Source: a virus
Lineage: Duplodnaviria; Heunggongvirae; Uroviricota; Caudoviricetes
IMG/VR virus record: IMGVR_UViG_2585427728_000004
DNA length: 11,946 nucleotides
Direction: 5' to 3' (one strand)
Shown here: one piece after another, positions 1 through 11,946 of the stretch
How the letters are laid out: the number at the start of each line of letters is the position of its first letter
Numbering within the stretch: position 1 is the stretch's first letter
Notes under the pieces: model-generated
The model's input: only the letters and a program-made list of their open reading frames with translations
Told to the model about the DNA's origin: nothing
Database searches by the model: none
Program-made: the position numbers and the translations under genes

Positions 1-1368
1 TTACTTCACGGAATATTTTGCCACGGTCGCTTTCGCGCCATGCGCTAATAAAGACAAGTACGTTTCCGTCACTCTTGCAGTAAACAAACTATTGTCTGGC
101 AAATCATCACCAAAGATCGCCTTAATCGCCAGCAATGACTGGACGCGCGCTTTCCCTTCGTCACTACTTTGTACAGCCTTCTGAATAACAGGTAACAGTG
201 GGTCACTGATTTCTATCGGATTTCCCTGTTCATCAACACCACCGACATAACGCATCCAACCCGCGACGCCCAGCGCCAGCAGATCGAACTTGCTGTCATG
301 CGCCAGATGCCAGCGAACAGAATCCAACATCCGCTGTGGCAATTTCTGGCTACCATCCATCGCAATCTGCCAGGTTCGATGACGTAACGCCGGGTTGCTA
401 TAGCGTGCAATTAATCGGTTAGCGTAATCTTGCAAATCAACGCCCTGCACTTTCAACGTCGGCGCTTGTTCCTGCAACATCAAGCCATACGCCGCATAAC
501 GATATTGTTCATCTTCCATACAGTCATTAATGTGCTGATATCCTGCAAGATACCCCAGATACGCCAGGAATGAATGACTGCCGTTGAGCATGCGCAACTT
601 CATCTCTTCATAAGGCAGCACATCGCTAACCAGTTCGGCTCCCGCTTTTTCCCATTCCGGACGTCCGGCAACAAAGTTATCTTCTATTACCCACTGGCGG
701 AAAGGTTCACAGGCAACGCCCGCAGGATCGCCCACACCGGTAAGTTGTTCGATTTTCGCCAGCGTATCCTCTGTCACTGCGGGCACAATACGGTCCACCA
801 TTGTTGATGGGAAAGTCACGTTATCTTCGATCCATTGTGCCAGTTTTACATCAACGGCTTGTGCGTAGGAAGTGACAACGTCACGCATAACATGACCGTT
901 TTCTGGCATGTTGTCACATGACATGACGGTAAATGCGGGAAGTCCTGCCGCTTTACGGCGAGCCAGCGCCTCAACAATCACCCCTGTTGCTGTTTTCGGC
1001 TGGTGGGGATTTTGCACGTCGGCAGCGACCATCGGGTGATCGAGCATTAACTGTCCGGTCGCCGGAGAGTGGAAATACCCTTTTTCGGTGATTGTCAGAG
1101 AGACAATCGCAATTTGCGGTTCACACATCGCAGCCAGCACGGTTTCTAAGCCATCTATTTGTACGTGCAAGGCTTTTTTAACGACGCCAACGACGCGAGC
1201 CGTCCACGCGTCGGCCGACATTTCCGCAACGGTATAAAGATTATCTTGCTGTTGTAAATCGGCAATTTGCTGTTCGCCGCCGATTAAGTTGACCTCATAA
1301 TATCCCCAGTCACTGAAATGTTCCGTAGCAAGAATACAGAGTGCGTATGAGCGCCTGCAGAAGAAGTG
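1..1368 (-). pseudogene. ydfI: Mannitol dehydrogenase family oxidoreductase (UxuB/YdfI-like), 5'-truncated remnant; the ORF-track ORF 1..1221 is its internal-ATG portion
   Basis: The 406-aa ORF aligns with the UxuB family from about residue 85 to the C-terminus ([45 protein letters not shown]). My hand translation of the same frame upstream of the ATG at 1221 continues the homology ([16 protein letters not shown]) up to an in-frame stop at 1369-1371 with no start codon, so the N-terminal Rossmann region is missing. Symbol is inferred from the neighbouring Qin-like prophage. Confidence 0.6.
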
Positions 1369-1930
1369 TTAACACTGTATTTAGAATAATCAGATGCTCC
1401 ACTTCCCGGAGCACCACTGGAACCACCTGAAACAAATGTCATCGAATGGGTATGTGCACCGGCTGAAGCAGCCGTACCGCTAACACTATGGGTATGCGCC
1501 CCGGTGTTATTCGTGGATTTAGTGCCGTAATCAAACGACGATGTGGTTTTCGTACCCAAATCCGTACTGGATGCGCTGGCGCTGTGGGTGTGCGATTTAA
1601 TGCCGTCCTGTTCCTGAGACAATATGGCTCGACCACTGGCGGGCTTGCCCTTAATCGTCCAGCCACGCAAATCAGGGATCACGCCTGACGGATAAGCGGC
1701 AGCAAGTTTCGGGTAGGCAGATTTGTCAAAAGTCTGCCCCTGCATCAGGGCATAACCAGACGGAACGGTATCTGATGGCCACGGGATTGGTGCGCCGACT
1801 GGGTAGCTTTCTGGTGGAAGATTTTTCGAGGTATAAACTTCTGCCCAGTCTTCCTCAAAACCATAGCCATCTCTTGAAGAACGGTAGAACAGACCTCCAT
1901 TTCTGTAATGCGCCTTCATCTGCAGGGTCC
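1338..1930 (-). pseudogene. Side tail fiber protein C-terminal fragment (Stf/gp37-like tip with GAHTHS repeats), lacking its N-terminal part; approximate boundaries
   Basis: ORF 1284..2051 contains [12 protein letters not shown]...[34 protein letters not shown] followed by three GAHTHS repeats typical of lambda Stf/T4 gp37-type fiber tips. The first ~44 codons and last ~17 codons of that ORF are out-of-frame readings of terminase and ydfI DNA respectively. Confidence 0.55.
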
Positions 1931-3339
1931 GGCAACTTCCGACTCCGGTAGCTGGCCGGATCAATTCGCTGGCTCTCCCCGTCGCTGTCACCGCGCAATG
2001 ACTGCGTGATGTTGTAACGATCAATAATCCAGCGTTCGCCACGGCTGCCATAGCCCGTTACCTGAACCACAAAACGGCGATGACGTCCCGCCTGCACATC
2101 CACTGTCGCCACAAGGAAATTAACGCCATCCGGCACACTGCGGGAAGGAACTGGCTCTGCCCGCTGCTCAAGCAATTCACTTTTTCGTTGCTCCATGCTG
2201 GCGCGGGGAAGATAAGGTAATCCCCAGTCGGTATTGATAACCGTCTTGAGTGTCTCTTCACTTCCGGTTGTCTCGTATTCCTGTTCTGCAGTAAGCAGCT
2301 TGTAAACGAGTTGCGAGAGTGTCTGATAAGCAGCTGCCGGACCCTCCATCCAGAATGACGCAATACGTGAACGCCGGGGATCACCATAACGACTGCCATC
2401 TGCATTGATGGATTCACCATCCCGTAACCAGACCCCACGTCCGTTCAGCTCGCGTTTTTGTTCAGGCAAAATCCGTCCTGAACAGGAAGGACACTGAATA
2501 TAAGCCGCCTCACTTGCCAGCACAGGATCGGCAATATCACGGAAACCAGCAACCACATCGCCGCAGGGCTGAAAATACTCACCACAGTGTGGACAGGGCC
2601 AGTACCAGCGACGGCGATCGCCACGGTTATAGAGCGACAGGATCCCCGTGGTTGGTGGAGCCTCATGCGGTGAAGTCCGTCGCCATTTCACATCCTTCAC
2701 ATCCCTGCCGGGGGAACTCTCCACCAGCGTCATACCACTGGACATAAATGTGGTGGTACGTTTTGAGGCAAGAGAGAAGGCATCCCCCTCACCATCAATA
2801 TCTTCCGGAAAACGGTCATAATCCGTCAGCGCCACGCATTTATAATCTGATGAAGACATGATATTGACTGACGGCCAGCCGATTTTCAGGTAGTTGCCAG
2901 CAAGGAATGTTCTGTCATAAACGTTGTTGTCATTTTTGTTCGGACTCAGGCGACTGACCACTTCCGGGCTGACGCGAAACGTTCTGGCGAGTCGTTTTTT
3001 GGAGTGTTCGCGGGCTTTTTCCTCCGTCATCTGAATGATCAGCATATCAGCAGGATCGCAAATCACGTTGTAAATCACCCAGCCGTCAATCAGGCCGATA
3101 GTCTTGCCGGTTCGTGCCGGGCCAACAAATATCACTGCGTCGTATTCACGCGAGGCCAGGCAGTTCATAGGCTCAATAACATACGGTGCCACCAGCGGAT
3201 CCCACGGGACTGAGTTCCCTGCCCCCATGGGCACCCGCATATACTGAGCAACGGCATCAGCAACCCGCATTCGTCTCGGTGCGCGAAGGATATAACCTGA
3301 ATCGGTTCGTGCTGCCTTTGCGGTTTCCTGATTCAGCAT
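1855..3339 (-). CDS. Phage terminase large subunit (lambda GpA family), C-terminally truncated and fused into tail-fiber DNA; probably non-functional
   Basis: 494-aa ORF with Walker-A-like GPARTGKT, the CPHCGE motif and a WIIDRYNI segment matching the lambda gpA nuclease-domain region. Lambda gpA is about 640 aa; homology ends near residue 465 and the frame then runs through tail-fiber sequence to a stop. The start ATG overlaps the upstream stop (TAATG). Confidence 0.75.
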
Positions 3340-3833
3340 TACTCCTCCTGCTGTAATTCCTCCTCATCATCCGCACCTGCTTCAGTCACCCGCAGGGCTA
3401 TCTGATCGCGCAGATCATCAATAATGGACTGAACACGGCTCACAGCGTCAGGCTGCAGACCGCAGTCACGTTCAAGAATATCCGGTAATGTCTCCAGCAC
3501 CTGCACGACCGCTTTTGCCCAGATGGCAAACTCCCGTCTGACATCACTGGCCGGAATGAGTTGTGCCGTTTCCTGTTCGAACTTAAGACGCTCACGTTCA
3601 GACTGATACCAGGCTTTGCGCTCATGCGCGTCCATTTCGCCTTCTGCAACCGGCGGTGGTAATGCCAGAAATGCCGACACAATATCAACCACCCGATAAA
3701 GCTTGAGGTTGCTTTCATGCCCCCCTGCAACGGGTAGATTTTGCAGCCTTGCCGCAGCAGTCTGGCGATGTACACCTGACAATGCCGCCAGTTGACTGAT
3801 ATTCAGCGTCAGATTTTTTAACTCTCGATCCAT
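3339..3833 (-). CDS. nohA: Terminase small subunit / DNA-packaging protein (Nu1/NohA-like)
   Basis: 164-aa ORF directly upstream of and overlapping the terminase large subunit gene; N-terminal HTH-like LNISQLAALSGVHRQTAAARL and an acidic C-terminus; a cos-like sequence lies ~190 bp upstream, as in lambda. Confidence 0.75.
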   Translation of the reverse strand: MDRELKNLTLNISQLAALSGVHRQTAAARLQNLPVAGGHESNLKLYRVVDIVSAFLALPPPVAEGEMDAHERKAWYQSERERLKFEQETAQLIPASDVRREFAIWAKAVVQVLETLPDILERDCGLQPDAVSRVQSIIDDLRDQIALRVTEAGADDEEELQQEE

Positions 3834-3989
3834 ACCCGCTCCAGAATGTTTTAAACATGCATCTTGCGAACAACTTTAGGCAAACGGTGTTAGTGATGAA
3901 CAAAAAACAATCAGAATCGACACCATAAAAATAAAACAACTGTAATATCAATCAATTACAGTAGTGGTGATGACGAATAAAATTTCAAA

Positions 3990-4045
3990 AACTAGCCTTT
4001 TTCCGCGACGCTCCCGCCCCGTGGCAGGGACCCCCACTGGGAGGA
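3990..4045. other. cos (cohesive-end) site of lambdoid prophage; cosN-like 12-mer at 4008..4019, read on the minus strand as GGGCGGGAGCGT
   Basis: Minus-strand sequence TCGGGTCCTCCCAGTGGGGGTCCCTGCCACG|GGGCGGGAGCGTCGCGGAAAAAGGCTAGTTTTTGAAATTTT resembles the remembered lambda ends (right end ...ACGGGTCCTTTCCGGTGATCCGACAGGTTACG, left end GGGCGGCGACCTCGCGGGTTTTCGCTATTTATGAAAATTTTCC). Distance to the terminase small subunit start (~190 bp) matches lambda cosN to Nu1. Confidence 0.55.
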
Positions 4046-4385
4046 CCCGACAGCCTGACAACCGTGACGAGCATCTGAAACAGAGCTTTACATAATGGCA
4101 TGGGGATAATTCAGAAGGACATCACAGCATGCCCACACAAATTAGTGTGAGTGTCCTGTTTCTTACTACGCGCAGGACTGACGAGCATGAGGGGAAAATA
4201 CGCGAACCGAAATGCCTTATCTTCAGAAATGCAGCCGGCATCCGAACTGGACGATATTGTAAATTCACCTAAATACGAGGCATTGCTGTAGTTGAATTGC
4301 AGTACTGTATTAGCCTTACAGTGACAGAATACGATATTGACTCTGTCACTTGTGAAATGGTCAGAATGGTTAGCAGTTATGGTGA

Positions 4386-4592
4386 TCAGTCAACCACCAG
4401 GGAATAATCCTTCGTATTCTTATCGTGCTTTACTAACGCGGCCTCAATTGCCCTGAATGCTTCCAGAGATACTTGATGTTCTATACATGCAATTACAACA
4501 TCCGGGTAACCCATCGAAATGGTGCTATTAAGCATAGTTTTTACACGAACCTGCTCCTGGGACGGGGCATCAGTGTATTGATCTTTATGCAT
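4386..4592 (-). CDS. Small prophage protein of unknown function (YbcW/YnfO-like, 68 aa)
   Basis: 68-aa ORF with GGAG Shine-Dalgarno ~8 nt upstream of the ATG; size and position (between the packaging genes and the lysis region) match the small DLP12/Qin ORFs of this type. Confidence 0.5.
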
Positions 4593-4794
4593 TTTGTCGC
4601 TCCATTCGTTTGCTCTTCACTTGCGGCTAAAAATATAACGTCAAATCACTCAGCATGAAAGAGTGAAAGTTTCAGCGCGTTTCCCTTACATAATCTGTCG
4701 TTTGTATTCTCTTCAGGCATACCGGAAAGACTAGGTATTGTCACACAACCAATACCATCGACAATCGAGATTTATATCTATTCGGTAATGTTTA

Positions 4795-4825
4795 AATATA
4801 ACAAAACCCCGTAAAAACGAGGTTT
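4795..4825 (-). terminator. Candidate intrinsic terminator downstream of gnsB
   Basis: Minus-strand RNA AAACCUCG-UUUUUA-CGGGGUUU (8-bp stem including one G-U pair) followed by a U-rich run; found by eye, not energy-scored. Confidence 0.35.
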
Positions 4826-4887
4826 ATGGGTAATTTGTATTGTTGAATAGCATCTGATGAGAAATTGATGCTAATACTATAAACATG

Positions 4888-5061
4888 CTAGATTAAATCA
4901 ATCTTGATATCATAGCTTTCAAGACCAGTCATTTTTTCCCGTGCAGTAAACTGGATACTGGTAACTTCTTTCCCGGTCTTTTTCTTAAGCTCAATGATTT
5001 TTTTTGTTATATATTCAGAAATATCTGCTTCTGTTTTTGTTTTTAACTCTTCAATGTTCAT
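4888..5061 (-). CDS. gnsB: GnsA/GnsB family protein (57 aa)
   Basis: MNIEELKTKTEADISEYITKKIIELKKKTGKEVTSIQFTAREKMTGLESYDIKIDLI closely matches the GnsA/GnsB family. AGAGGA Shine-Dalgarno precedes two adjacent ATGs (5064 and 5061); the ORF-track N-terminal extension to 5154 is probably not translated. Confidence 0.8.
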   Translation of the reverse strand: MNIEELKTKTEADISEYITKKIIELKKKTGKEVTSIQFTAREKMTGLESYDIKIDLI

Positions 5062-5233
5062 CATTTCCTCTTTTAGTCTGTTATGACTGTCCTGGTACAC
5101 AGTAGTGTCAATTATATGGAGCAAACGTATAAAAGATAAGATGAAACATCGCAATAATCAACATACGACGGTCTAAATTTCACACAAACAGATAAAGATG
5201 ATTATCATTTATTATCAATGCATTAGAATCAAA

Positions 5234-5389
5234 TCAATTCAAGAGTCTCATTGCTGCTTCCAGAATTTCTTCTGAAGTTACATGTCGATCCGCTGCTACA
5301 TAAATGACTTTATGATCTCCGGTCAGAGATGGAAACCCTGCAGCCATTACAGTGAGGTGTGTTGTTTCGCCATTTGGATATTCACGCAT
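5234..5389 (-). CDS. ynfN: Qin-prophage-type small protein YnfN-like (51 aa from MREYPNG; upstream in-frame starts at 5410 and 5464 also possible)
   Basis: ORF 5234..5503; the 51-aa version starting at MREYPNGETTHL has GGAG upstream and matches the length I remember for K-12 YnfN. A terminator-like hairpin at 5507..5530 argues against the longest start. Confidence 0.55.
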   Translation of the reverse strand: MREYPNGETTHLTVMAAGFPSLTGDHKVIYVAADRHVTSEEILEAAMRLLN

Positions 5390-5506
5390 GATGGTGTTAA
5401 CTCCGGTCATCACTGGCACTACCATTGCTGGTTCAGAGTTAAAAAAAACTATTATTTTTTTCATAATGTTACCGTAATATGTGAGTATCCATCGACTAGA
5501 CACTAA

Positions 5507-5530
5507 GCAAAAAAGCTCCCGAAGGAGCCT
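5507..5530 (-). terminator. Candidate intrinsic terminator downstream of cspI (GC stem with UUCG tetraloop and U6 tract on the minus strand)
   Basis: Plus strand aaaaaaGCTCCcgaaGGAGCcttcatttt; on the minus strand GGCUCC-UUCG-GGAGCU is followed by UUUUUU. A U-rich run also follows on the plus strand, so it may be bidirectional. Confidence 0.4.
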
Positions 5531-5735
5531 TCATTTTCACTTTCTTAAATCTAACGACAGATGGCTAACATTTAAGTATTGTGAAATATTATCAAATGTA
5601 ATCATCATTGATTTACAAAAGATACATTTTGCCCCGAAAGGATTTCTGTCAGAAACATCAAAAGATGATGTTCTATACTGAGAACCATGGCAACACGGGC
5701 ATCTAAAGTGAATATGGTTTGTAATATTTTCTACC

Positions 5736-5948
5736 TCAAAGTGCCACTACATGAACAGCTGCAGGGCCTTTAGGTCCGTTCTCAATACCAAATTCGACTT
5801 CCTGATTCTCAGTTAACGTTTTGAAATCGTTGCTCTGAATAGCTGAGAAATGCACAAACACATCTTTGCTACCATCTTTCGGCGTGATGAAACCAAAACC
5901 TTTTTCAGGGTTAAACCATTTCACTAAACCAGTCATTTTGTTAGACAT
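5736..5948 (-). CDS. cspI: Cold shock protein CspA family (70 aa), CspI-like
   Basis: [70 protein letters not shown] carries the RNP1/RNP2 motifs (KGFGFI, VFVHF) of cold shock proteins; AAGG Shine-Dalgarno and a long AT-rich leader lie upstream. Confidence 0.9.
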
Positions 5949-6311
5949 CATTATTACCTTTTGAAGAAGTTAGCCCTTGGGCAGAATGGTCCGAAAAAAA
6001 ATATCAGAAAGAAAAACCAACAAGGAAATCTCAAGAGGTACAAATAATAAAATTATAACAATGACTGCTTCAGATAATTTTGTAACAAACCAGAACACCA
6101 TTAACGCATGATTAACCAACCATAGCAAGGATTACTTTTGTAAAGAAAAACACACGAATGAAACAATAGCTTTATTTATTAATAAAACGTGTCATTCTGT
6201 CTAATGACCTTTTATCTTACCCTTAAGATTTCAAGGATTTTGACTCATGGAAGAGTCCTTTTTATTTAAATTTCACATTCAGCGCTAAAAATAATCCGAT
6301 TTAATATTAAT

Positions 6312-7334
<1,023 letters not shown>

Positions 7335-7338
<4 letters not shown>

Positions 7339-7646
7339 AGATATTTATGATGAGGACGCTCGTGCTTATTGGCAGGATTTTCAATCTTAAAGGAGTACTG
7401 ATGCTGCAGATAAGACTCAACTTTTTCTGACAATTTTTCTGCTACTTCCAGGAAGACTTGCCGGACGCTCATTCTGGCTGCTGCCTCATAAAACTCCAGC
7501 ACAGCTCCTTCAACACGGTCCATGGCGACATCCAGGCCAAAAATTTCACCGTCAAAGCGTTCTTTGTCCTGTAAGGCTACAGTTACCGTAACTTTATTCT
7601 CAAAATTACGGACTCCTTTCACAACCAGTTCATAGTCTTGAGTCAT
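7335..7646 (-). CDS. ydfR: YdfR-like protein (DUF1327), unknown function, embedded in the lysis cassette
   Basis: 103-aa ORF with strong GAGGAGAG Shine-Dalgarno, start 4 nt after the holin stop; its stop overlaps the endolysin ATG (ATGA). Confidence 0.75.
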
Positions 7647-7650
7647 TGGA

Positions 7651-7866
7651 TTACTCTCCTCTCGCAGCCTTACGCCTGTCTTCTTTAATCTTGAAATAAA
7701 GATTTGTCAGATACGTCAGCATGCCAAATACCAGACTACCCAATACACCTATTGCCGCCCACTGTGAGGGCGTGACTTTATCGAGCAACTGTAAAAACCA
7801 GTAGCCAGCACTGCCTGCAGAGGTGCTGTAGGCGATGCCCGTTGTTAACTTATCCATGGATTTCAT
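7651..7866 (-). CDS. essQ: Pinholin, phage 21 S21-like class II holin with dual-start motif (71 aa)
   Basis: [71 protein letters not shown] has two transmembrane segments and a charged C-terminus; GGAGGTGA Shine-Dalgarno upstream. The ORF-track extension to 7950 is read-through. Confidence 0.85.
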
Positions 7867-7954
7867 AGCCTCACCTCCGCAGATAACGGATGGTGTACAC
7901 GGTTTGGTTCGAAGAAGGAAAGAAGTTACATTAGCGTAAGGCCCGAACATCTAT

Positions 7955-7987
7955 TCAAAAAGAAAAACGCCAGCAATTATTCTGGCG
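7955..7987 (-). terminator. Candidate intrinsic terminator between the AraC-family gene and the holin
   Basis: Plus strand aaaaaCGCCAGcaattattCTGGCG; on the minus strand CGCCAG-aauaauug-CUGGCG is followed by UUUUUCUUUUU. Confidence 0.45.
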
Positions 7988-8056
7988 TAGCTAAAAATAT
8001 CGTATAATCTTACACTTCAAAAAATAACTTTATAAAATACCATCACATCATATCTT

Positions 8057-8770
8057 CTAAGAAAATCTTGATAAATATTGGTGCGGAGGCACACCAAAAT
8101 ATCCTCTAAAAACACTTACAAAATATGATGCATTGTCATACCCGCATATTCCCGCCACCTTGCCGACAGTATGGTTACTGTAGATCAATAATCTTTGCGC
8201 CATCATCATTCGTTCTTCAAGAATTAATTTACTAAACGATAATCCTTCGTCTTTTAATTTTCTTTTTAACAAACTCTCGCTCATATATAATCTTGAAGAT
8301 ATATCACAAAGTCTCCATGACGCAGAGATATCCGAGTGAATAATAGCCTTAACTTTACAACCTAAGCTATTAAGACTTCCGAACAAAAAACTTTGCACTA
8401 TTTTCTCTGAAGATAAGACAGCAAGACATGCAAGTGATATTTGATTTCTAACTACATCCACGGTTTTGCTATCACAATTCAAGCATGCAACCAAGTTCTT
8501 TAACAATGAAAAATCTTCACATTCTACTATCAAGTATGACGGATAAAACCTTCTTACAGAAAAAGGTGAGAGTGTGTAGTTTTTAAAGAAATCATTAACT
8601 GTTTTCTCCTCAACATCTACGATCATTAGATGATCTGTATTTGACGAAAAAAGATCTTTTAAATTGTATTCAATGAGGACAGCATTTCCTTTTTTAAACA
8701 AAATATCTTCTTTACCAATTCGGACACCAAACGAGTTCAACACCAAAATGATAGAACATATGTATGGCAT
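8057..8770 (-). CDS. AraC/XylS-family transcriptional regulator (AppY/Rns-like size class, 237 aa from the ATG at 8770)
   Basis: C-terminal double HTH typical of AraC family (LLKRKLKDEGLSFSKLILEERMMMAQRLL...VGKVAGICGYDNASYFVSVFRGYFGVPPHQY). AGGTGG Shine-Dalgarno 5 nt before the ATG at 8770; the ORF-track start at 8779 is GTG. The gene and its ~400-bp upstream region are visibly AT-rich. Confidence 0.85.
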   Translation of the reverse strand: MPYICSIILVLNSFGVRIGKEDILFKKGNAVLIEYNLKDLFSSNTDHLMIVDVEEKTVNDFFKNYTLSPFSVRRFYPSYLIVECEDFSLLKNLVACLNCDSKTVDVVRNQISLACLAVLSSEKIVQSFLFGSLNSLGCKVKAIIHSDISASWRLCDISSRLYMSESLLKRKLKDEGLSFSKLILEERMMMAQRLLIYSNHTVGKVAGICGYDNASYFVSVFRGYFGVPPHQYLSRFS

Positions 8771-9176
8771 ATTATCCACCTGATATCATTGGGGTTACAC
8801 CAGGTAAGTATAGGTGGAAAATCAATATTCGCCAGTTCAACAATAAGGAAAATCTCATTGCATCACAACTATAAAACCATGTGTTTAACTCACAAAAAAC
8901 AAATCATTAAACTAATCTGTTATATTATAATAGCTGCGTGCAATAATAATATTATATGCTCTTAATATTCACTTGAAATATCTTCATATAAAAACAGATT
9001 GAATAAAATCTTTTGGGGCTGGTATGTTTACCAACATTAAATTGCATCTCAATGTTTTCTTTAGCGTGAACAGGATTTTTATAAAAACTGACACTATGAG
9101 CATCATAGCGTAGTTTTTACGATTGTAAATATCCTGCATACAGGAACTCATCACTTTCAGATGATATCGCATACAG
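8771..9176 (-). promoter_or_regulatory. AT-rich leader/promoter region of the AraC-family gene; candidate nucleoid-protein (H-NS-type) silencing target
   Basis: About 400 bp of very AT-rich non-coding DNA between two minus-strand genes. The only ORF here (8984..9172) is low-complexity with no ribosome-binding site. No specific promoter hexamers assigned. Confidence 0.3.
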
Positions 9177-10136
9177 TTAATTCACCATCAGTCTTAGAGC
9201 CAGTTCTTCCGGATAGGGATCGAAGTAGTTCTGTGTAAGCAAGTAATCATTAGGATACTCACCCAGATAATGCTTCAGCAGAGTCAACGGCGCAAGAAGA
9301 GGCAATGTGCCAAAGCGATAGTTAAGTATAACCTCGCTCAACTCTTTACGCTGGCGTGTACTTAAGTAATTACTAAAATACCCCTGTATATGCATCAGCA
9401 CATTCGTGTGATTTTTACGTGATGCTGGTTTTCTGAGAATCGCCATCAGATTATCACGATACACCTCAAAGTATGATTCAAGGTCCGCCCACTCGTGTAT
9501 TGCAGCCACAAATGGTCCCATATCTTTATAGCCTGCCTGGCTATGCGCCAACAACTGAAGCTTATAACGACTATGAAAAGCTAATAACTCTCTTCTTGAT
9601 AATTTCTCCTTGTAAAGGTGATTGAGCTCATGCAAAGCAAAAACTCTTTCAATAAAATTCTCACGAAGCACTGGATCATGTAATCGCCCATCCTCTTCAA
9701 CCGGTAGCCAGGAAAACTTTTCCATCAAAGTGCTCGTAAATAGTCCCACTCCATCTTTACGACCTCGATTACCATTTTCATCATAGACACGCACGCGCTC
9801 CATGCCACAGCTGGGAGATTTAGCACAAACCACAAACCCCGATACATCCTTTAATTTGTCCATATAAGAACGACTAAACTCTGTCATTCTCTCTGTCACA
9901 TCCTCATTCTGGTCGTGGCTGAAACACATCCGTATATTTCCTTGCTTCGAGCGCACAAGTCGTAGAGCAGGACGCGGAACTGGCAGCCCTATAGCCATTT
10001 CCGGACATACTGGTCTGAATGTTACCCATTCCACTAATTTGTCCATTAAAAAGTCATCTCTTTTGTGACCACCATCAAAACGAACAGCAGAACCGCCCAA
10101 ACAACCGCTGATCCCAATCACAGGTTTTTTTATCAT
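9177..10136 (-). CDS. DUF523/DUF1722 fusion protein (TudS-like putative [4Fe-4S] thionucleobase desulfidase with YbgA-like domain)
   Basis: N-terminal MIKKPVIGISGCLGGSAVRFDGGHKRD with three spaced cysteines (GISGC, PVCPE, SPSCG) as in DUF523/TudS; the C-terminal half resembles DUF1722 (YbgA). Strong GGGGGAGGAA Shine-Dalgarno 4 nt upstream of the ATG. Confidence 0.8.
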   Translation of the reverse strand: MIKKPVIGISGCLGGSAVRFDGGHKRDDFLMDKLVEWVTFRPVCPEMAIGLPVPRPALRLVRSKQGNIRMCFSHDQNEDVTERMTEFSRSYMDKLKDVSGFVVCAKSPSCGMERVRVYDENGNRGRKDGVGLFTSTLMEKFSWLPVEEDGRLHDPVLRENFIERVFALHELNHLYKEKLSRRELLAFHSRYKLQLLAHSQAGYKDMGPFVAAIHEWADLESYFEVYRDNLMAILRKPASRKNHTNVLMHIQGYFSNYLSTRQRKELSEVILNYRFGTLPLLAPLTLLKHYLGEYPNDYLLTQNYFDPYPEELALRLMVN

Positions 10137-10328
10137 TTCCTCCCCCTTGACTAATTCATTAACACATAAACTTTGTAGTGCACGGACTAAATTGCCTTTC
10201 TGGCTTCATCACTGACAATTTTTCTGTTATTGACTATTCCTAATATAGTAGGAAAGTTCTTTAAGTGATCGGTCGTACTCATCTATCTTTCATACTTACT
10301 CTCAACTATCAAAAGTACAGGATTTATT
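10137..10328. promoter_or_regulatory. Divergent intergenic region between the DUF523/DUF1722 gene and the lipocalin gene; presumed to hold both promoters
   Basis: 192-bp gap between divergently oriented starts; contains TTGACT- and TATAGT-like hexamers but no confident -35/-10 pairing by eye. Confidence 0.3.
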
Positions 10329-10853
10329 ATGAAGTTATGGCCTGTGTTGACTGGCATTGCACTCTCTTTCACTCTTATAGCATGTAAGGCCCCGACACCA
10401 CCTAAAGGTGTGCAGCCGATTACAAATTTTGACGCCAACCGCTACCTCGGAAAATGGTATGAAATAGCTCGCCTCGAGAACTGGTTCGAACGTGGTCTGG
10501 AACAGGTCAGCGCTACTTATGAAAAACGGAACGACGGAGGGATTCGCGTACTTAACCGTGGATACGATCCAACGAAAAACAAATGGAGCGAGAGCGAAGG
10601 TAAAGCATACTTTACTGGAGATACTAAAACTGCAGCGTTGAAAGTTTCGTTTTTTGGCCCCTTCTATGGTGGCTATAATGTAATCAAACTGGATGATGAG
10701 TATAAGTATGCTCTTGTCAGTGGTCCGAACAGAGAATACCTATGGATTCTGGCAAGGACCCAAACTATTCCAGATAATGTAAAAGCAGACTATGTGCGTA
10801 CCGCTCAAAAGTTGGGATTCAATGTCAATGAACTATTATGGGTTAAACAATAA
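10329..10853 (+). CDS. Bacterial lipocalin Blc-like outer-membrane lipoprotein (174 aa)
   Basis: Signal peptide with LIAC lipobox (MKLWPVLTGIALSFTLIAC), then Blc motifs NFDANRYLGKWYEIARLENWFERGLEQVSATY and GKAYFTGDTKTAALKVSFFGPFYGGYNVIKLD...YLWILARTQ. AGGA Shine-Dalgarno upstream. Only plus-strand gene in the window. Confidence 0.85.
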   Translation: MKLWPVLTGIALSFTLIACKAPTPPKGVQPITNFDANRYLGKWYEIARLENWFERGLEQVSATYEKRNDGGIRVLNRGYDPTKNKWSESEGKAYFTGDTKTAALKVSFFGPFYGGYNVIKLDDEYKYALVSGPNREYLWILARTQTIPDNVKADYVRTAQKLGFNVNELLWVKQ

Positions 10854-10881
10854 AATCCCCACCCGAAATGATACTTATTAG

Positions 10882-10908
10882 AAAAAAACCAGCCTTTGGG
10901 GAGGCTGG
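10882..10908 (-). terminator. Intrinsic terminator ~100 nt downstream of the Q gene (tR'-like candidate)
   Basis: Plus strand gaaaaaaaCCAGCCTttggggAGGCTGG; on the minus strand a 7-bp GC-rich stem with 6-nt loop is followed by UUUUUUUU. No T-run follows on the plus strand, so it is unidirectional. Confidence 0.5.
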
Positions 10909-11008
10909 CTAAATCAGGAAACAAGCTGTTATATGATAATAACTACGTTGCGATTCCAACATTTAAAATGTTAGACTAATGAAAATCAGACAGCAACTTT
11001 TCCTTTAA

Positions 11009-11386
11009 TTATTTCGAACAATCAGCATCCATCTCCAATCGGAGATCCAACACCATCAGCATGCCCTCCACTACGCCCTCAGCTTTCTGGAGCATCCTGC
11101 CAACCCAACAATCAGATCGCCCATGCTTACGTGCAAGCGCCATAAAAGTCATGCCGCCGACATAATAGTCCACCAATAAATCATGTAAATCGCTGTTGTT
11201 TTTTTTCAGGCGAGCCATACATTCACAAATGATCATCGCGTCATCGTCACAGCATTGCGGACGAGATCTTACTTTTGAAGGAATTAATCCCTTAAAACCG
11301 GCGGCAATGGACGACCAGGTCACATCTTCATGATTATTAGCCGCCCATGCCCCCCAACGCTCAAGAACCATCTGAATATCACGCAT
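11009..11386 (-). CDS. Late-gene antitermination protein Q (short QuuD/phage-82-type, ~125 aa)
   Basis: [24 protein letters not shown]...[18 protein letters not shown]... matches the short Q antiterminator family with its cysteine cluster; GGAG Shine-Dalgarno 9 nt before the ATG at 11386. The ORF-track start at 11401 is TTG. Confidence 0.75.
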
Positions 11387-11403
11387 CAACTTACTCCACA
11401 AAA

Positions 11404-11946
11404 TTAGGCCAGCACACCAATTGCCAGCGCGCGATCGATAAATCGAAAAATCAGCTCCAGTTGGGAGCCATACTTCTCTTCAAATGCCACGGTATCCGTA
11501 TGCAACTCGTCGTGATGCTTTCTGCACAAAGGCAAAACAAAGAGATCATGTGCTTTGGTTCCCATTCCGCCCTGCCCGTGACCAATCAGATGATGCGGAT
11601 CGTCGGCTGGCATACCATATCGGTGAATAACGGTTTCGCTGTGATGATAATCGCCGTGTGGCCACTGGCAGGATTTAATATGGCGCAACAGCCAGTCAGA
11701 CAATGCACCAGCACCACCAGCAGCACGAATTACCCGTGCGTTACTGAAAAACGGCAGCAATGTTTTGTCTTCCACCAGCGGCTGGCGAACGGCAGGAACG
11801 ACCCCGGACGGCAGATTACGCATGCTTTTCGGTTCCGGCTCCACCAGTACCCGGGTATTGTGGAATACCGGCATGGATTCACGGCCCGGCTTAACGACCA
11901 CCAGCCCGAGTTCCGGTACCAGAACAGGTCGAAGTAATACCCGCAC
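11404..11946 (-). CDS. DUF968-family prophage protein (YdfU-like), C-terminal ~180 aa; gene continues beyond the window end
   Basis: ORF runs off the window edge; contains the HNH/zinc-like motif [28 protein letters not shown] and sits immediately upstream of Q as ydfU does in Qin. Confidence 0.6.

Follow-up and report, generated by a model that had tools for sequence, protein, structure and literature searches.

The Qin prophage of Escherichia coli K-12 MG1655 carries the genes nohA-stfQ-tfaQ-pinQ beside ydfJ/ydfI, together with gnsB, ynfN, cspI, rzpQ, rrrQ, ydfR and ess. Terminase fragments are also known from other cryptic prophages of K-12. The aaaE gene of e14 is annotated as a truncated gpA-family terminase gene left by a deletion, and aaaD of DLP12 is presumably a terminase-fragment pseudogene. 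The locus described here differs from aaaE and aaaD, which lie in other prophages and have other partners. It occupies the same chromosomal site as K-12 Qin and has the same gene set. Its central feature is very probably a deletion scar, in which a truncated gene for the terminase large subunit (terL) was fused out of frame to an internal piece of a side tail fibre gene (stf) by a homology-independent deletion.

Genomic context of the prophage remnant

The DNA analysed here, referred to as the window, is 11,946 nucleotides long. A megablast search of 5,426 complete E. coli genomes with window positions 1-4200 returned two full-length matches of 100% identity, ET881 and SW071610. In the annotated identical record, the region is bounded by ydfZ/ydfI on one side and by a row of Qin-prophage genes on the other (gnsB, ynfN, cspI, rzpQ, rrrQ, ydfR, essD, a Q antiterminator, a DUF968 gene and a truncated integrase). 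Annotation and comparison with K-12 thus gave a lambdoid prophage at the ydfJ/ydfI site with the series gnsB-ynfN-cspI-rzpQ-rrrQ-ydfR-ess, and the window is a defective, decayed remnant of a Qin-locus lambdoid prophage adjoining ydfI. The genes of the junction area (ydfI, the fibre fragment, terL and a DUF1441 gene) are all on the minus strand. RefSeq annotation (PGAP) lists three adjacent pseudogenes among them: ydfI without its N-terminus, a phage tail protein without both termini, and a terminase without its C-terminus.

The intact Qin-locus prophage of E. coli AMSCJX03 (NZ_CP058355), which lies at the same chromosomal site, served as the reference for breakpoints. Identity to this genome was 98.4% for window positions 1-1336 (ydfI), 97.2% for 1334-1950 (side tail fibre gene) and 99.9% for 1944-4200 (terS/terL region). 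Outside three deletion junctions, the window is collinear with the AMSCJX03 prophage at an identity of at least 99.9%, and the sole other difference is an IS1 in AMSCJX03, whose insertion point corresponds to window 8953-8961.

Several other features of the remnant were observed. The lysozyme gene rrrQ (6806-7338, minus strand) is split into two ORFs (6806..7195 and 7138..7338); it is frameshifted according to PGAP and intact in AMSCJX03. The leader and coding region of cspI are covered by the Rfam cspA thermoregulator (RF01766, 111 bits; 5690-6095, minus strand). Between the Q antiterminator and the lysis genes lies a gene block that does not look phage-derived (8057-10853), containing an HTH-domain regulator, a DUF523/DUF1722 (YbgA) protein and a lipocalin (Blc). 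Just past the right end of the window (L001 20948-22186) are a partial hypothetical gene and a tyrosine integrase lacking its N-terminus, which are further decay of the same prophage.

Junction between terL and the tail fibre gene

The original prediction held that a deletion had fused terL to a tail fibre gene in another frame and that the portal, protease, capsid and tail genes normally lying between them were absent. Both claims were borne out by alignment to the intact lambdoid prophage at the same site: in the window, terL is cut at codon 464 and abuts the fibre gene in another frame. Base-by-base comparison with the parents placed the break at window positions 1949-1950 (junction 1), with the crossover inside a TA dinucleotide. 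The fibre parent reads ...GACTCCGGTA|TAGAAG, the terL parent ...CTTCCGGATA|GCTGGCC, and the window GACTCCGGTA|GCTGGCC. The two bases TA are the only ones common to the parents at the crossover, and they lie within an imperfect CCGG(A)TA match (7 of 8 nt, TCCGGATA vs TCCGG-TA).

Relative to the AMSCJX03 prophage the deletion measures 19,720 bp, a figure that is approximate because the parent had another fibre allele, the AMSCJX03 fibre gene being merely 97.2% identical to the fragment. Within this segment AMSCJX03 has the rest of terL, a small ORF, the portal gene, a protease/capsid fusion, head-completion genes, all tail genes including the tape measure gene, gpJ, lom, and fibre codons 1-854. 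The predicted loss of the head and tail block is therefore confirmed. That a single deletion removed it, as was also predicted, is the most economical reading, and junction 1 probably formed in one step; the sequence is equally compatible with a two-step route, which is weighed below.

Two further deletions and the distribution of the junctions

Junction 2 (1334-1336) joins the tail fibre gene to ydfI through a 3-bp microhomology, ATA, and lacks 4,267 bp of the intact locus. The parents read ...AAGAATA|TCGG in ydfI and ...CCCGATA|CAGAG in stf, and the window reads AAGAATA|CAGAG, connecting fibre codon 1061 to nucleotide 126 of ydfI. Lost at this junction were the last 55 codons of the fibre gene, tfaQ, pinQ, ydfK, ynfT, what was left of ydfJ and the initial 125 nt of ydfI, and with them the boundary between prophage and host. 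The remaining ydfI pseudogene (mannitol dehydrogenase family; 1..1335, minus strand) shows 98.4% identity to AMSCJX03 ydfI between nt 126 and the stop, and its match to the Pfam Mannitol_dh profile begins at profile position 21. Junction 3 (11613-11616) lies inside ydfU (DUF968), where 503 bp are missing relative to AMSCJX03 and the microhomology is TACC. One parent reads GGCATACC|GCAGC and the other, on the deleted side, GCCGGTACC|ATATCGG, and the window reads GGCATACC|ATATCGG.

Comparison with other strains revealed that junctions 1 and 2 are rare. Probes of 141 bp across junction 1 and 131 bp across junction 2 each had a full-length match in 2 of 5,426 complete E. coli genomes, the same two for both, while the separate halves of the probes were matched by thousands of genomes. 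Therefore, the two junctions are recent, lineage-specific events. The same sequence was found on two IMG/VR contigs, and its presence there and in two complete genomes rules out an assembly artefact at junction 1. A metagenome scan for the junction gave no matches.

Origin of the deletions and recurrence of the breakpoints

All three junctions of the window are clean two-parent joins without inserted bases, and their overlaps (TA, ATA and TACC at junctions 1, 2 and 3) are as found in microhomology-associated illegitimate deletion. Mobile-element ends were absent from these junctions; IS ends were seen elsewhere (IS1 in L128 and IS903B in L011). Replication slippage or microhomology end-joining, and not an enzyme-directed cut, is the inferred mechanism. 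An illegitimate deletion would have connected terL just past codon 464 to an internal point of the fibre gene through the 2-bp TA overlap, with the loss of about 19.7 kb that had coded for all the head and tail proteins as well as the nuclease half of the terminase. What results is a dead fusion, whose terL ORF enters the fibre DNA out of frame and ends after 30 codons. Two more deletions of like kind trimmed the remnant, one of 0.5 kb in ydfU and one of 4.3 kb that crosses the prophage/host boundary and reaches into ydfI.

Against random slippage stand the reuse of the same endpoints in terL and in the fibre gene and a near-constant TA, which such slippage does not predict; a sequence-preferring process may lie behind the recurring endpoints. 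Most mappable deletion junctions in the remnants of E. coli lambdoid prophages cross over at TA, although this is not universal. Besides the three junctions of the window (1949-1950, 1334-1336 and 11613-11616), TA-type junctions were found in loci L004, L005, L008, L009, L017, L019-L021, L035, L042, L043, L074, L079, L080, L084, L105, L189, L202, L260 and L261, and the rule is broken in L182, L214, L252 and at the second junction of L004.

An alternative to random slippage, doubtful but conceivable, is an enzyme with a sequence preference as the cause of the deletions. Such an enzyme would act by exchange or cleavage at a 2-bp TA core, with a bias towards sites like CCGGTA, and candidates would be an activity resembling that of a serine recombinase or a transposase, or a nuclease that leaves TA overhangs. 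In its favour, the crossover lies at TA in all three junctions of the window. IMG/VR prophages were also drawn by a 25-mer anchor in the fibre gene, blind to the breakpoint, with IS1 and IS903B insertions recognised separately from deletion junctions. In this sample, the fibre-side endpoint was TA in 11 of 11 distinct deletion junctions (one more base matched in three of them), against a TA share of about 5% of the dinucleotides in the fibre region. The partners, where identifiable, were holin, lysozyme, ydfU, a tolA-like gene, trkG and terL. A similar sample anchored in terL had TA at only 4 of 8 junction sites, which, like the second junction of L004, speaks against such an enzyme; one of the non-TA junctions is 7 nt from the recurrent terL site.

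The reuse of individual nucleotides also argues for a preferred site. Two CCGGTA sites in the fibre gene, both TACCGG on the coding strand, have each been joined to four different partners at the same nucleotide; these partners include terL, terS, ynaK, a holin-region segment and a tail-gene fragment, and two were not assignable. The site used in the window is joined elsewhere to a divergent terL near codon 427, to sequence adjoining a holin gene and to a tail-gene fragment. At the upstream site, the partner is a DUF1441 gene (in the terS position) in PI12 and ynaK in PE164, a fourth partner occurs in IMG/VR, and in the pao-locus prophage of three ETEC genomes (ETEC4073, ETEC4090 and ETEC1706) the site is joined to a terL cut at the identical nucleotide as in the window, 678 bp further upstream in the fibre gene than junction 1. 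The terL site CCGGATA has three partners, the third being the tape-measure gene in an IMG/VR prophage. The distal fibre segment with the upstream hot site was also found at 100% identity over 76 nt in the fibre genes of P2-like (baseplate-bearing) prophages (L013 and L015), and the fibre module with this site appears, from such identity, to be common to unrelated phage types.

In the seven junctions for which both parents are known, the shared sequence is just TA, GTA, ATA or TACC, and in each of them the bases on the two sides of TA differ in parental origin, one parent supplying the left base and the other the right. This fits a 2-bp core. A gyrase-type exchange with a 4-bp stagger was rejected on the same observation (7 of 7), since its crossover would fall beyond TA, by one base on each side.

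However, no candidate enzyme was found. The crossover sites of the Hin/Gin/Cin/Pin recombinases follow a 26-bp consensus, TTNTCNNAAACC-NN-GGTTTNNGANAA. The repeats of e14 fit this consensus, and the genuine Pin (pix) sites of e14 are TTCTCCCAAACC-AA-CGTTT, with an AA/TT core. The junction sequences are unlike these sites, and no consensus site was present, with up to 3 mismatches allowed, in the intact loci L003 and L010; a Pin/Gin/Hin-type site-specific deletion was thus rejected. IS30 makes 2-bp target duplications, and its deletions begin at the IS end (PMC9333248). An origin of this type does not fit the prophage deletion junctions, which contain no IS, and inspection by eye of the ends of the deleted segments identified no transposon-like terminal inverted repeats. 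Hairpin or cruciform hot spots also failed as an explanation, DNA folding of six breakpoint regions giving z-scores of -0.95 to +0.15. A tentative palindromic motif, CCGNTANCGG, derived from 14 sites, is weakly predictive, as about 30% of the TA positions in the fibre gene score equally high and the test is circular. The reciprocal products at the two fibre hot sites were not found in IMG/VR, which is weak evidence given that far less dispensable DNA lies on that side. A search of the literature retrieved no description of TA-biased prophage deletions.

Overall, the deletions in E. coli lambdoid prophages might come, and we put this forward only tentatively, from a process with a 2-bp TA core as its point of joining and a strong preference for a few sites like CCGGTA. 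The same fibre and terL nucleotides would then be hit repeatedly in unrelated prophages at different loci, and the nohA|stfQ junction of K-12 would be one product. If true, this would point to an enzyme, or to a very specific DNA-intrinsic fragility, behind prophage "grounding", and the recurrence of breakpoints and the TA overlap, if upheld in a systematic census, would mean that E. coli prophages are inactivated by a preferred and genetically identifiable molecular route. The recurrence leaves the verdict on the terminase-fibre scar unchanged, and it is the only part of this case worth following up.

It is also conceivable, if unlikely, that junction 1 arose in two steps. In that route, the first join was between terL codon 464 and the upstream site in the fibre gene (TACCGGGGCTTTG, the arrangement of ETEC4073), and a 678-bp deletion followed between two copies of CCGGTA, one at the first junction and one inside the fibre gene. 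Exactly this putative intermediate, with the identical terL endpoint, is carried by the three ETEC genomes; L005 has one CCGGTA at its junction and another 678 bp downstream, where the breakpoint of the window lies, and these two are the only TACCGG in an intact fibre gene. However, the ETEC prophage lies at another locus (pao), its terL differs from that of the window at 38 positions, compared with 2 for the intact Qin-locus prophage, and its fibre gene is only 90% identical. Moreover, no genome was found with the intermediate at the Qin locus. A single deletion with a TA overlap is the reading followed below.

Coding capacity of the fused genes

The terminase remnant comprises codons 1-464 of 700 (1951..3339, minus strand) and is 99.9% identical to AMSCJX03 terL, with 2 mismatches, an assignment that Pfam and PGAP also support. 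DNA identity to the intact terL continues at 99.9% from window position 4200 to 1944-1949 and then ends. The final terminase residue is Tyr464, whose codon is completed by the TA at 1949-1950. The remnant is part of an ORF of 494 aa (1855..3339, minus strand), in which Pfam detected a complete ATPase domain (GpA_ATPase, PF05876; residues 41-304, profile positions 2-247 of 247, E = 8e-72) and only the first 39% of the nuclease domain (GpA_nuclease, PF20454; residues 326-460, profile positions 1-115 of 294). Both domains are complete in the AMSCJX03 homologue of 700 aa. Beyond residue 464, where homology to that protein ends, frame analysis identified a tail of 30 codons (1855..1947, minus strand) that runs out of frame through fibre DNA to a chance stop: the terL frame reads ...DPASY and then RSRKLPDP...WLWF*, where the intact protein goes on with PEDWDVLL. 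Judged by its domain content and length, the 494-aa ORF is a remnant and not a functional gpA-family terminase. Directly upstream, in the usual position of the small terminase subunit, lies a DUF1441 gene (3339..3833, minus strand; PF07278, E = 2.4e-42), annotated as intact in both the window-identical record and AMSCJX03.

The fibre piece (1337..1950, minus strand; 97.2% identity to L003 3686-4302, supported by Pfam and PGAP) is an internal fragment covering residues about 855-1061 of 1116. It retains the distal Stf features Collar (PF07484) and one Phage_fiber repeat (PF03335), and the last 55 codons and tfaQ are deleted. Attachment of the fibre to the tail is the role of the prophage tail fibre N-terminal domain (PF08400), which spans residues 1-134 of the intact 1116-aa protein and is absent from the ORF in the window. 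The fragment has no start codon of its own. It is read within a composite ORF of 255 aa (1284..2051, minus strand), which by frame analysis and Pfam is not a gene: 34 codons of out-of-frame terL are followed by about 204 codons in the true fibre frame and about 17 out-of-frame codons of ydfI.

These results refine the original prediction. The two overlapping ORFs that it took as the footprint of the junction (1855..3339 and 1284..2051) both exist on the minus strand and overlap as described. The terminase break, placed near residue 465, was right to within one codon, and the full length of about 640 residues has to be replaced by 700. The fibre piece is in another frame, as stated, and is internal, not simply the distal or 3' part, since the second deletion took the last 55 codons.

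The converse reading, which takes the 494-aa ORF for a full terminase belonging to a short family and the fibre-like ORF for an intact gene of its own, has practically no chance of being correct, even though both ORFs are long and start with ATG, because the nuclease domain halts at profile position 115 of 294, a 700-aa gene at the same locus is otherwise 99.9% identical up to the break, the final 30 residues of the one ORF are out-of-frame fibre DNA, and the other begins with 34 residues of out-of-frame terL and misses PF08400.

With a dead terminase-fibre fusion and a fibre piece that lacks a start codon, the prophage is predicted to be incapable of packaging DNA and of building particles. 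The locus is a textbook case of prophage decay, and it was already known in so far as the genes had been flagged as pseudogenes by RefSeq. The case is one strain's Qin-type prophage losing particle formation, as many cryptic prophages did, and matters little in itself; its main use is as a clean example with breakpoints at base level.

Comparison with known prophages

AMSCJX03 is the closest relative, being 99.9% identical over window positions 1944-11946, barring one IS1 and the 503-bp ydfU deletion, and it provides the parental sequences for both junction 1 and junction 2. Unlike the window, it has a full terL of 700 aa, all head and tail genes, a fibre gene of 1116 aa, tfaQ, pinQ and an intact ydfI. 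The pao-locus prophage of the three ETEC genomes has the identical terL endpoint (CCGGTA|GCTGGCC), and its fibre side is also TACCGG. It differs in its locus, in a fibre breakpoint 678 bp upstream, and in its intact fibre C-terminus and tfa.

The precedent for this type of scar is Qin of K-12 MG1655, in which nohA is joined to stfQ with a TA overlap. There, too, a packaging gene abuts a truncated side tail fibre gene, the morphogenetic block is lost and the crossover is at TA. Mapped with relatives of both parents, the nohA|stfQ junction is GCGGTTA|TATTCAC at L261 6840-6841 (NC_000913.3, about 1,635,839). Its parents read GCGGCTA|CCCG on the fibre side and TTCGATA|TATTC on the packaging side, with only TA in common. 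The K-12 prophage differs from the window in its Nu1-type nohA, in its fibre allele and in the positions of the break. It also keeps tfaQ, pinQ, ydfK, ydfJ and an intact ydfI, whereas the strain of the window lost them through junction 2.
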